A stretch of 64,000 bases of DNA. Source: Escherichia phage PSD2002. The stretch lies in sequence record OK335775.1; one strand, 5' to 3'. A model generated the notes under the pieces. It saw only the letters and a list, made by a program, of their open reading frames with translations, had not been told where the DNA came from and ran no database searches. The position numbers and the translations under genes were made by a program. Shown here in pieces: positions 16,622-18,919 of this stretch; position 1 is the first letter of the stretch; every line of letters begins with the position of its first letter.

Positions 16622-16912
16622 ATGTTATACGTTAAGGTTACTAATCCAGAGAATGGATATAATTCAGACCAGGTTGCAGCAGAGCTACTGATTCGCAACT
16701 TTGGCAAAGGTGCTGTGCTTGATGTCCAACAGGTTAATATTGGTCGTAGTTCAAGCGACGTTAAACTAAAAGTTAACGGTCGCCGTTATAATTCTGTTAA
16801 CTTTACTTTCTACACCGCAACTGAAAACGGGTTGGTCGAATACGACATCTTTAAAAATCCTTTGAAGATTGCTTCTATTAAACTTGATTACATTAATATG
16901 TGGCCACAATGA
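16622..16912 (+). CDS. hypothetical protein
   Basis: 96-aa ORF, ATG overlaps the upstream stop (TAAATG). Confidence 0.5.
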   Translation: MLYVKVTNPENGYNSDQVAAELLIRNFGKGAVLDVQQVNIGRSSSDVKLKVNGRRYNSVNFTFYTATENGLVEYDIFKNPLKIASIKLDYINMWPQ

Positions 16913-17086
16913 ACCAAATTTGACCAGACTATTCCTAAAAATAGTAATATGCTTTAAGAGTAATGTGTTATTATTACTCTATCATTAATACCCTCTATTA
17001 CCAAAGGTTCTTCCCTCAAAGAACCTTTCATAATAGACAAGGTCTATTAATCAAACTTACTTTACTTAATTTTATTTGAGGTGTTT

Positions 17087-17353
17087 ATGTTAGTATTAAA
17101 ATTAGCTTTTTATGACCCGGCAACCAAGACAACAACAACCAAACGTTGTTCTATTTCATATGAATGTCAATTTGGTGAAGTTGAGACCGACGGCGGGCCC
17201 TTTATGGCAATTGCCGATAGCACATTCGCTAAACCAAAAATAATTCCACTAGTTAACGCTGCGGCTTATCTGGTTGCTCCTGAAGAAATGACTTATCACA
17301 CAATTCAGCACATGGCTAAAGATGATAATGCTCCTGCTGGATTTGTAGTTTAA
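17087..17353 (+). CDS. hypothetical protein
   Basis: 88-aa ORF with GAGGTG SD-like sequence upstream. Confidence 0.45.
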   Translation: MLVLKLAFYDPATKTTTTKRCSISYECQFGEVETDGGPFMAIADSTFAKPKIIPLVNAAAYLVAPEEMTYHTIQHMAKDDNAPAGFVV

Positions 17354-17358
17354 ATTAA

Positions 17359-17435
17359 GGCCCTGTAGCTCAATGGTTAGCAGCAGTCCCCTCATAAGGG
17401 AAAGGTTACCAGTTCAAATCTGGTCCGGGTCACCA
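17359..17435 (+). tRNA. tRNA, anticodon CAT (Met/Ile-lysidine type)
   Basis: Acceptor stem GGCCCTG/CCGGGTC, T-arm ACCAG-TTCAAAT-CTGGT, anticodon loop CTCATAA, encoded CCA. Confidence 0.75.
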
Positions 17436-17440
17436 ACTAT

Positions 17441-17515
17441 GTCCCGCTGGTGTAATGGATAGCATACGATCCTTCTAAGTTTGCGGTCCTGGTTCGATCC
17501 CAGGGCGGGATACCA
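17441..17515 (+). tRNA. tRNA-Arg (anticodon TCT)
   Basis: Acceptor GTCCCGC/GCGGGAT, T-arm CCTGG-TTCGATC-CCAGG, anticodon loop CTTCTAA, encoded CCA. Confidence 0.8.
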
Positions 17516-17754
17516 AATGAAGACTATTATATAGTCAAGCCGTCGTATGAAGACTGATTACCAGCATTCACCGGCGCAACAAACAAGAAACCGGGTCGCT
17601 ACCGGTAAGTCGTCGGACTGATGTTCCCTGAGTAAGGACTGGCATTAACAAATCTTTACGATCTGTTAACGTTCCCTTACATCACAGCAGAAACGGCGCA
17701 CCGAATTATCGATTCGAGGAAATATCTTTGCCGTAAGCCGAGTAGCGTTTTTGA

Positions 17755-17846
17755 CGGAACGTTCGGATATGGTCGAGATATGGCCTTTTAAAAATATTGA
17801 GTGGCGTCAACTACTTAATAACCGGGTTCGAATCCCGGCGTTTCGT
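17755..17846 (+). ncRNA. tRNA-like element (7-bp acceptor stem plus canonical T-arm, no encoded CCA); possible small stable RNA
   Basis: CGGAACG pairs with CGTTTCG; T-arm CCGGG-TTCGAAT-CCCGG; D and anticodon arms do not fold canonically; lies in a 600-bp ORF-free region. Confidence 0.35.
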
Positions 17847-17896
17847 ACAAACACTTGCCTAGCAGGTGGAACCCCGACAAGGTTACCCTAGGTTAA

Positions 17897-17927
17897 AGGC
17901 CCTTCCGAAAGGTTGGGCTTTTTTTGT
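17897..17927 (+). terminator. terminator-like hairpin with T-tract (repeat copy 1)
   Basis: AGGCCCTTCCGAAAGGTTGGGC followed by TTTTTTT; a near-identical copy lies at 18541. Confidence 0.5.
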
Positions 17928-17934
17928 ATAAATA
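17927..17934 (+). promoter_or_regulatory. late promoter (TATAAATA)
   Basis: TATAAATA about 27 nt upstream of the ATG at 17961. Confidence 0.5.
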
Positions 17935-17960
17935 TGTAGTAAACTAACTTAGGAAATAAT

Positions 17961-18425
17961 ATGAAAACTTACAATGAATTTTTGACTGAACAATCTAGTT
18001 CAGATGTAAAAGCCGCTGCTATTGCAGCAATTCAAGCAGGTAAATATTCTTACAAAGACGCCTCTGATGAAGAACGTTTCCGTTTTATTAAAGATTTTAA
18101 AGCCGAAGGTTTTACTAATGCTAATACTGTTAGCCGAGTTTTTAAAAGCCTAGCTGCATCAGGTGAATTGTTCCAGAAAGCTACAGGTAAAGCACCTGCG
18201 TCAAAAGCGGACCCTAAAGCCGCTCAAGAAAAAAATATCGCCAAAGGAATTATTTCTAAGTATGAAGCAATTCTTAAAGAGCTTTTAGTAATCAAAACAG
18301 AAGGCCAGAAACTGGCACGAGCACATAGCTTCAAAGATAATCCACATGCTCACGACTTAGAGTATGTTGAAGATATTCAGAAAATCATCAAAGACCGTAT
18401 CTGGTCTGCTAAACAAATCAAATAA
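17961..18425 (+). CDS. internal-protein-like protein
   Basis: Starts MKTYNEFLTEQ; 154 aa. Confidence 0.6.
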   Translation: MKTYNEFLTEQSSSDVKAAAIAAIQAGKYSYKDASDEERFRFIKDFKAEGFTNANTVSRVFKSLAASGELFQKATGKAPASKADPKAAQEKNIAKGIISKYEAILKELLVIKTEGQKLARAHSFKDNPHAHDLEYVEDIQKIIKDRIWSAKQIK

Positions 18426-18428
18426 CGA

Positions 18429-18449
18429 AAGCCCCAGATGGGGCTTTTT
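18429..18449 (+). terminator. rho-independent terminator
   Basis: GCCCC-AGAT-GGGGC followed by TTTTT. Confidence 0.65.
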
Positions 18450-18540
18450 GGTTAACTTAGAGAAATATATGAAACTTTTAAAATAAAGCTATGTTAGCCT
18501 TCCACATAAACCCATTCCGGTTCTACAAGAACTGATTCTA

Positions 18541-18568
18541 GGCCCTTCCGAAAGGTTGGGCCTTTTTT
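18541..18568 (+). terminator. terminator-like hairpin with T-tract (repeat copy 2)
   Basis: GGCCCTTCCGAAAGGTTGGGCC followed by TTTTTT. Confidence 0.5.
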
Positions 18569-18591
18569 GTTTCTAAAAAGTTTAAAAAGTT

Positions 18592-18620
18592 GTTTACACC
18601 TCCTTTAAACATGATACTAT
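18592..18620 (+). promoter_or_regulatory. T4-type early promoter cassette
   Basis: GTTTAC ... TGATACTATAGACCTATCAAAACAAC. Confidence 0.6.
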
Positions 18621-18655
18621 AGACCTATCAAAACAACAGAGTGAAGGAGAGTAAA

Positions 18656-18919
18656 ATGGATAATTATGGTGAATTGTTTAATTTCTTTATGAAATGCGTT
18701 CCGGAAGAATTTGGTGCTACAGTTAACGATATTAAAGTTATCGGTCCTGAACACCCGGTGTATGAAACCTATGCAGTAATGGGTAATGAAGATGGACAGT
18801 GGTATACAATTAAAGTTGTGATTAATATGTTCTCAGCTGAAGGTTACGCCAAATCGTCTACCAAAGTTTACCATGGTAATGATTTTGATGCAGAAAATTA
18901 TTTCAATAATATGAAATAA
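18656..18919 (+). CDS. hypothetical protein
   Basis: ATG preceded by AGGAGA; the ORF-track N-terminal extension starts at GTG inside the leader. Confidence 0.5.
   Translation: MDNYGELFNFFMKCVPEEFGATVNDIKVIGPEHPVYETYAVMGNEDGQWYTIKVVINMFSAEGYAKSSTKVYHGNDFDAENYFNNMK

Follow-up and report, generated by a model that had tools for sequence, protein, structure and literature searches.

A pair of small RNAs, rnaC and rnaD, has been known from bacteriophage T4 since the 1970s. In the T4 genome (NC_000866) they follow the arginine transfer RNA (tRNA) gene in the order rnaD (71053–71171, 119 nucleotides (nt)), a 6-nt spacer and rnaC (70908–71046, 139 nt), and the annotation lists them as misc_RNA, rnaD as ‘species 2 RNA’ and rnaC as ‘species 1 RNA’. 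Both transcripts are stable, accumulate late and have been confirmed by northern blot (PMC9697503). Here we compare these genes with a locus of Escherichia phage PSD2002 (OK335775.1), of which a stretch of 64,000 nt, hereafter the window, was analysed. Positions 17516–17930 of the window align base for base with T4 rnaD and rnaC downstream of tRNA-Arg, which bears out the guess of a first-pass annotation, made from the sequence alone, that this region might be the equivalent of the T4 small stable RNAs. We conclude, with a probability of roughly 0.85, that the region holds the orthologues of T4 rnaD and rnaC, and that rnaC is a tRNA mimic probably released by tRNA-processing enzymes. The genes themselves are already known, and the locus is ordinary in that both are expected in any close relative of T4; it is the comparative fold of rnaC that may be new.

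The rnaC homologue occupies 17709–17847 on the + strand and, over its 139 nt, is identical to T4 rnaC at 137 positions in an ungapped alignment. Of its two substitutions, the A-to-G change at 17803 leaves a G-U pair where T4 has A-U in the 10-base-pair (bp) arm described below. As in T4, the gene lies after rnaD, from which it is separated by the 6-nt spacer GAAUUA (17703–17708, + strand, placed by alignment to T4), and is followed by the same trailer and terminator. The records closest to window positions 17300–18000 are QL01, WG01 and vB_EcoM-E33 (99.3% identity), QL01 being classified as a Dhakavirus. Altogether, some 750–800 phage records hold the rnaD/rnaC region, and some of them (GenBank T2L, RB, T4) label it as rnaC and rnaD.

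Homologues of rnaC came from Tequatro-, Dhaka-, Gapriver-, Mosig-, Teguna-, Karam-, Kagamiyama-, Winkler-, Gelderland-, Moon-, Kanagawa- and Marfavirus, first as 25 distinct sequences and later as 33, with explicit pair counts made on 29. RNAalifold, applied to a MAFFT alignment of the 25, folds them into a cloverleaf of four arms, with both-sided changes at 24 of its 44 pairs. In the explicit model 94.8% of cells are paired, as compared with 37–47% when partners are slid; both-sided changes affect 30 of its 50 pairs, and not one of 500 shuffles reaches any of these measures. The window sequence taken alone has the consensus fold as its minimum-energy fold (−49.9 kcal/mol, z = −4.25). A covariance model built for rnaC recovers 17709–17847 with 172.8 bits as its sole match in the window. 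Real tRNAs score about 20 bits under that model, and their acceptor, anticodon and T arms map to the corresponding arms of rnaC. Judged by this comparative fold, the whole 139-nt rnaC is a cloverleaf-like tRNA mimic, its own two ends forming the acceptor stem.

The acceptor stem pairs 17710–17716 (CGAUUCG) with 17839–17845 (CGUUUCG) on the + strand, seven positions made up of five Watson–Crick pairs and a conserved tandem U.U, and it is drawn from covariation. Three types of this stem occur: CGAUUCG/CGUUUCG (the T4 type), CGGUUCG/CGUUCCG (most others) and CAGUCCG/CGGACUG (the Tegunavirus type), the last being Watson–Crick at all seven positions because the U.U pairs are replaced by U-A and C-G. 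Alignment column pair 8:146 is GC in 21 sequences and AU in 8, and pair 7:147 is GC, GU or AU. Next comes a D-like stem of only 3 bp in the covariance-based model (17717–17719 with 17784–17786, + strand), which bears a long arm in the D-arm position (17717–17786, + strand) with about 60 inserted nt. The covarying helices of this arm, between 17724 and 17779, are 17724–27/17776–79, 17730–35/17768–73, 17738–41/17763–66 and 17745–49/17758–62, and they lead up to the terminal loop UUUGACGG at 17750–17757; an internal loop sets AAAU opposite AUGG, with an invariant GG at 17782–17783. Helices 3–5 of the arm are 97–99% paired, and both-sided changes affect 16 of their 19 pairs. In Gelderland-, Moon-, Kanagawa- and Marfavirus most of the long-arm sequence has been replaced, and the hairpin and the same presented loop are kept. 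An 8-nt, U/A-rich linker then leads to the anticodon-position arm (17795–17820, + strand), a covarying 10-bp stem (17795–17804/17811–17820) that closes the 6-nt loop CGUCAA (17805–17810); 8 of its 10 pairs are changed on both sides and 96% of cells pair. A single A joins this arm to the T arm.

The T arm itself, with stem strands CCGGG (17822–26) and CCCGG (17834–38) and the loop UUCGAAU (17827–33), had been picked out as canonical by the first-pass annotation, and it is indeed present at 17822–17838 on the + strand, 100% paired and with covariation (columns 127:139 are UA in 15 sequences, GC in 11 and AU in 2; columns 126:140 are CG in 26 and UA in 3). Across all 64 kilobases (kb), GGTTCRANYCC, the consensus for a T loop, turns up just twice, in tRNA-Arg and in rnaC, against 0.32 occurrences expected by chance.

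The acceptor-like stem of that same annotation, CGGAACG/CGTTTCG, fared less well. Both strands exist (17755–17761 and 17839–17845) and the 3′ strand is real, but CGGAACG is not its conserved partner: as an acceptor 5′ strand it shows no both-sided change in 25 sequences, and CGATTCG at 17710–17716 covaries instead. A 92-nt tRNA-like 3′ module closed by CGGAACG/CGUUUCG (17755–17846), whether taken as the working fold or as a state that switches with the terminal stem, is therefore improbable, for all that it has in its favour. In the window the stem can form with 7 bp, one of them G.U; three Karamvirus sequences have all 7 bp without a flaw, and overall 86% of cells pair. Moreover, the tRNA-Sec model of Rfam gives a weak alignment that covers just this span (16.6 bits, E = 5.8). 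That alignment is the best match of rnaC within the tRNA clan and stands well below the model’s threshold of 47 (the gathering score for tRNA is 29), and ARAGORN makes no call on rnaC. On the other hand, none of the seven pairs is changed on both sides, an A.C mismatch occurs in 14 of the 25 sequences, and there are three mismatches in the Tegunavirus type, the very type whose terminal stem is fully Watson–Crick. The CGGAACG bases are already needed by the covarying hairpin 17745–49/17758–62 and by the loop–loop helix discussed below, forcing the stem costs 13.3 kcal/mol over the minimum-energy fold, and the annotated mature T4 RNA begins 46 nt upstream of it. Since this stem is uncovaried and costly, the tRNA-like element has to be the entire rnaC.

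A relaxed search for tRNAs and structured RNAs had been proposed along with that stem; an Rfam scan of positions 16900–18700 at E ≤ 10 returns just the two tRNAs and noise. Likewise, Rfam 15 contains no family that matches either RNA, whether as present in the window or as found in four divergent homologues, even at E ≤ 1–10.

Could the element be a decayed tRNA, as the first-pass annotation had also considered? A functionless leftover of a lost tRNA gene would sit in a tRNA cluster, as rnaC does, and could well keep a T arm and an acceptor stem, lack an anticodon loop and go uncalled by both ARAGORN and the Rfam tRNA model. The conservation of rnaC contradicts it. The sequence is kept at 95–100% across about 680 Tequatrovirus-like records and is retained in at least 10 genera (Karam-, Tegu-, Mosig-, Gelderland-, Moon-, Winkler-, Kagamiyama-, Kanagawa-, Gapriver- and Marfavirus), 30 of 50 pairs show compensatory changes, its two loops have been held complementary, and the T4 RNA accumulates stably (PMC9697503). 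We reject the reading of rnaC as a pseudogene. A small protein gene, for which the candidate in the window would be a 46-codon open reading frame (ORF) with a TTG start at 17751–17891, is harder still to credit. Many GenBank records do place a ‘hypothetical protein’ over rnaC or rnaD, an example being CPT_Marfa_145 of Klebsiella phage Marfa (L062:421–558), but no frame is open across the 33 homologues, the 49-codon frame of the window shrinking to 32 codons in T4 and 17 in Tegunavirus, and rnaC substitutions track base pairing, not codon positions. Coding sequences (CDSs) annotated over homologues of rnaC and rnaD are thus probably mis-annotated non-coding RNA genes.

The most distinctive feature of the model is a proposed contact between its two large hairpins. 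Loop 1 of the long arm, UUGACG (17751–17756, + strand), is complementary to loop 2 of the anticodon-position arm, CGUCAA (17805–17810), and the two could form a 6-bp kissing helix. They are reverse complements in all 33 sequences (29/29 in the explicit pair count), with two independent compensatory changes, to UUGAUG/CAUCAA in the Tegunavirus/Mosigvirus type and to UUGGCG/CGCCAA in Marfavirus. Because this helix was left out of the covariance model, the alignment is not biased towards it. Separately, both hairpins were seen to open with the same 9-mer, GAGTAGCGT at 17740–17748 and GAGTGGCGT in the second copy (17799–17807); the two kissing hairpins may, to go by this repeat, have arisen by internal duplication.

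In tRNA, the elbow is formed where G18 and G19 contact the T loop. In rnaC, bases 17782–83 read GG wherever the T loop is of the UUCGAAU type (28 sequences) and CG in exactly the five with a UGCAUNC T loop, which belong to Winklervirus and the L008 group. Such a co-change fits an elbow contact, with the GG as a candidate counterpart of G18 G19, but with one or two evolutionary events behind it the pattern is no more than suggestive. The ends of the RNA are tRNA-like as well. Bacterial ribonuclease P (RNase P) prefers U at position −1, and the base before the acceptor stem (U17709 in the window) is U or A in all homologues. At the other end (17839–17851, + strand), the acceptor strand CGUUUCG (17839–45) is followed by the discriminator U17846 and then ACAAA. 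The first-pass annotation was right that no CCA is encoded: the TACAAA tail is CCA-like, not CCA. Most homologues have the tail U-ACA and those of the Tegunavirus type U-UCA; only Marfavirus (F48, Marfa) encodes a true U-CCA.

The distribution of rnaC is that of a separately mobile module, which frequently sits with a tRNA gene on either side. Karamvirus, Erwinia phage COW86c, Gelderlandvirus, Kagamiyamavirus and Winklervirus have rnaC and are missing rnaD, and in these phages the space from one tRNA gene to the next is taken up exactly by rnaC, the neighbours usually being tRNA-Trp/tRNA-Gly or tRNA-Phe/tRNA-Trp. Conversely, in Dhakavirus CLBP2 (L006:1503–1640) the trailer and terminator come directly after rnaD and the precise stretch of rnaC is absent, while QL01, of the same genus, has both RNAs. 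In Marfavirus, rnaC (L047:596–746, L062:401–551) comes after a single tRNA-Met, not in a large tRNA array. Yersinia phage vB_YenM_P8 (L005:1501–1617) has rnaD and then unrelated sequence with annotated small ORFs and no rnaC at that place; its record also carries a CDS annotated on the opposite strand across rnaD. Outside phage records, a pattern combining the 5′ motif with both kissing loops gave nine matches in 596 gigabases of bacterial genomes, none of which fits the covariance model; about 7.5 matches are expected by chance, a hand estimate from the degeneracy of the pattern. In IMG/VR the pattern GTTCGAGGA...GGTTCGAATCC returned mostly chance matches, with only L042 genuine. Metagenomes yielded further copies of the Marfavirus-like and L008 types only, none of which brought a new covariation event.

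How such an RNA might be made and used can be outlined as follows. rnaD and rnaC would be transcribed on the + strand together with tRNA-Met and tRNA-Arg in a unit ending at an intrinsic terminator. RNase P would cut between U17709 and C17710 and so free rnaC from the tRNA-operon transcript, the GAAUUA spacer serving as its 5′ leader, and trimming would finish the 3′ end; cleavage by RNase P is inferred because the top half is tRNA-like. That same top half (acceptor, T arm and elbow) would explain the metabolic stability of rnaC. The loop–loop contact would sequester the anticodon-like loop, and with that loop clamped rnaC should be unable to decode, the oversized body adding to its exclusion from decoding.

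Its target, if it has one, can be discussed only tentatively. It is possible that rnaC is a decoy or titrant of a factor recognizing the acceptor or the elbow of tRNA, for example a defence protein of the host that is directed at tRNA, or an enzyme of tRNA processing or modification. A more elaborate proposal, which we consider unlikely but worth stating, is that of a self-clamped mimic: the arm derived from the D loop would pair with the anticodon-like loop, much as T-box stem I does but intramolecularly, leaving only the acceptor, T arm and elbow face exposed, and the RNA would act in trans to neutralize a host factor recognizing tRNA tops (for example, a defence toxin acting on tRNA by modifying its 3′ end or cutting its acceptor stem) or would be CCA-bearing, charged and non-translational. 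If true, this would be the first function for an RNA that has been an orphan since the 1970s.

Two other roles have to be weighed against these. With the same identity, rnaC could have a purely cis-acting role as punctuation for processing and stability of the tRNA operon, providing RNase P and exonuclease stops and protecting 3′ ends. Both RNAs do always lie inside tRNA arrays or at their 3′ ends, and each can be lost singly (CLBP2 lacks rnaC; Karamvirus and others lack rnaD). Yet a mere spacer needs no complementary loops, no covarying 10-bp arm and no GG invariant across genera, and the excised RNA accumulates late to levels detectable by northern blot (PMC9697503); we think a cis role unlikely, though it deserves to be taken seriously. 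Less probable by far is a chargeable tRNA-like RNA, CCA-repaired and aminoacylated, that would serve in non-decoding delivery or engage the ribosome and EF-Tu as transfer-messenger RNA (tmRNA) does. The 7-bp acceptor, the discriminator U, the canonical T arm and the encoded NCA tail, a true UCCA in Marfavirus, would suit such a molecule. Most members, however, have ACA or UCA and the T4 annotation ends in ...GUA, and there is no G3.U70 or other recognizable identity set, no tag ORF and no tmRNA call by ARAGORN.

Several observations weigh against the view of rnaC as a processed tRNA mimic, or limit it. T4 can lose its tRNA region by deletion and still grow on laboratory strains, which would make any role of rnaC and rnaD conditional. 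In the T4 annotation the first base of rnaC is a U that lies one base upstream of where RNase P is predicted to cut, and the last bases are ...CGUA; with such ends the molecule is no exact fit to a textbook tRNA, and CCA addition is hypothetical. The tandem U.U, present in 26 of 29 acceptor stems, brings the paired cells of that stem down to 74%. The proposed loop–loop helix could form within one molecule or between two, and covariation is blind to the difference. The later rnaC alignments were fitted to the nested model, though the MAFFT alignment gives the same result, and the homologues are related, so that independent events are few: two for the loop–loop helix and two or three for the acceptor stem. 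Finally, the literature treats RNAC and RNAD as small RNAs of the T4 tRNA region with function unknown (PMC3014915), and both PMC9697503 and PMC12685909 likewise describe rnaC and rnaD as ‘of unknown function’.

The second RNA of the locus, rnaD, lies at ~17586–17702 on the + strand, in alignment with T4 rnaD positions 3–119. As in T4 it is placed between tRNA-Arg and rnaC, and it shares the 5′ block (AGAAACCGGGUCGCUACCGGUAAGUCGUCGGACUGAU) and the 3′ block (CUUACAUCACAGCAGAAACGGCGCACC): identity extends over the first ~37 and last ~28 bases, with divergence in between. The middle hairpin of the window differs from that of T4 in sequence and keeps its pairing, and the 3′ end is CACC-G where T4 has CACC-A. 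A 5′ hairpin, ACCGG-GUCGCUA-CCGGU at 17590–17606 (consensus RCCGG-GUCGCUA-CCGGY, with A-U changed to G-C in two sequences), is followed by a long-range stem of GUCGUCG (17609–17615) with CGGCGCAC (17694–17701), which is invariant and hence uninformative on covariation; in between lies a long, variable hairpin whose pairing is maintained. RNAalifold on 11 distinct sequences gives 93% of cells paired, against 33–49% in slid controls, with 10 of 35 pairs changed on both sides. A tRNA-like reading of rnaD was tried and dropped, the CACC-A end of T4 being unconserved (CACCG, CACAG and CACCC elsewhere). As for a role, a T4-like phage evolved on E. coli ECOR34 acquired a convergent single-nucleotide polymorphism in rnaD (PMC12685909), a hint at a host-specific function.

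Unlike T4 rnaD, which starts 1 nt after the CCA of tRNA-Arg, and rnaD in other phages, which starts 4–7 nt after a tRNA 3′ end, rnaD in the window is preceded by a lineage-specific insert of 66 nt at the tRNA-Arg/rnaD junction (~17521–17586, ends good to 1–2 nt, + strand) that is absent from T4. It is predicted to fold into two hairpins (17522–17536 and ~17539–17578). BLAST found it in only 26 phage records (QL01, WG01, MX01, AnYang and similar) at 98.7–100% identity, and no more distant relatives. It was rejected as a truncated copy of rnaD, the local alignment being non-significant (31 of 500 shuffles score as high), and as a tRNA remnant, since neither Rfam nor ARAGORN gave a signal. In this lineage rnaD may have a longer or otherwise different 5′ end.

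In all 64 kb, ARAGORN detects no more than two genes for tRNA, tRNA-Met(CAT) at 17359–17435 and tRNA-Arg(TCT) at 17441–17515, both on the + strand, with Rfam tRNA scores of 50.9 and 48.8 bits; tRNA-Arg is identical to that of T4 in the alignment. They are the upstream members of the transcription unit that includes rnaD and rnaC. Between 17516 and the next ATG (17961) there is no ORF of at least 60 codons, only TTG ORFs of 46 and 34 codons, so that the region is ORF-free in the sense of the first-pass annotation but extends for ~445 bp rather than ~600 bp. Its 3′ part (17852–17925, + strand) is predicted to be a trailer with one or more hairpins and then the terminator-like hairpin already suspected there, GGCCC-UU-CC-GAAA-GG-UU-GGGC with a GAAA loop and a U run (~17898–17925). 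The fold of this segment is weak by itself (z = −1.66); the trailer and terminator module is conserved in T4 and, in CLBP2, stands directly 3′ of rnaD. The same 31-nt terminator module occurs twice, at 17897–17927 and 18540–18570, 643 bp apart on either side of the ORF 17961–18425; the repeated sequence is AGGCCCTTCCGAAAGGTTGGGC(C)TTTTTTTGT, a stem with a tandem U.U and a GAAA loop. Directly after the first U run, 27 nt upstream of the ATG at 17961, lies TATAAATA (17927–17934), the T4 late-promoter consensus.

What the species 1 and species 2 RNAs of T4 do is a question about 50 years old, and to it the comparison adds a strongly constrained tRNA-like fold with a covarying loop–loop contact. 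Neither rnaC nor rnaD is in Rfam, and many genome records carry spurious proteins over both. The added value of the comparative structure is moderate; its fold model yields precise and cheap experiments.

Among known RNA classes, several invite comparison. YrlA (a bacterial Y-RNA-like RNA), the tRNA-like structures of plant viruses and mascRNA are non-decoding RNAs that copy the top half of tRNA and are handled by tRNA enzymes. rnaC differs from these mimics in having no Ro-binding stem, no rsr neighbour, another overall layout and no Rfam match to them. It resembles tmRNA (SsrA) in the acceptor stem made from its 5′ and 3′ ends, the T arm, a large insertion replacing the anticodon arm and the tRNA-like processing proposed for it, but it lacks the tag reading frame, the series of pseudoknots and the encoded CCA, and in place of G3.U70 its pair 3:70 is A-U or G-C; in the window, ARAGORN calls no tmRNA and Rfam gives no match to one. 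From canonical tRNA (RF00005) it departs in length (139 nt), in having no U8/N9 linker and a variable region of 1 nt, in a D stem of 3 bp that bears the ~60-nt inserted arm, and in an anticodon-position arm of 10 bp with a 6-nt loop paired elsewhere, instead of 5 bp with a 7-nt loop offering U33, an anticodon and purine 37; its acceptor has the tandem U.U and no encoded CCA (UACA in the window). What it shares with canonical tRNA is the 7-bp acceptor stem formed end to end, the single discriminator base, the four-arm topology, the location in a tRNA array and the T arm, a 5-bp stem with the 7-nt loop UUCGAAU, for which five homologues have UGCAUNC instead.

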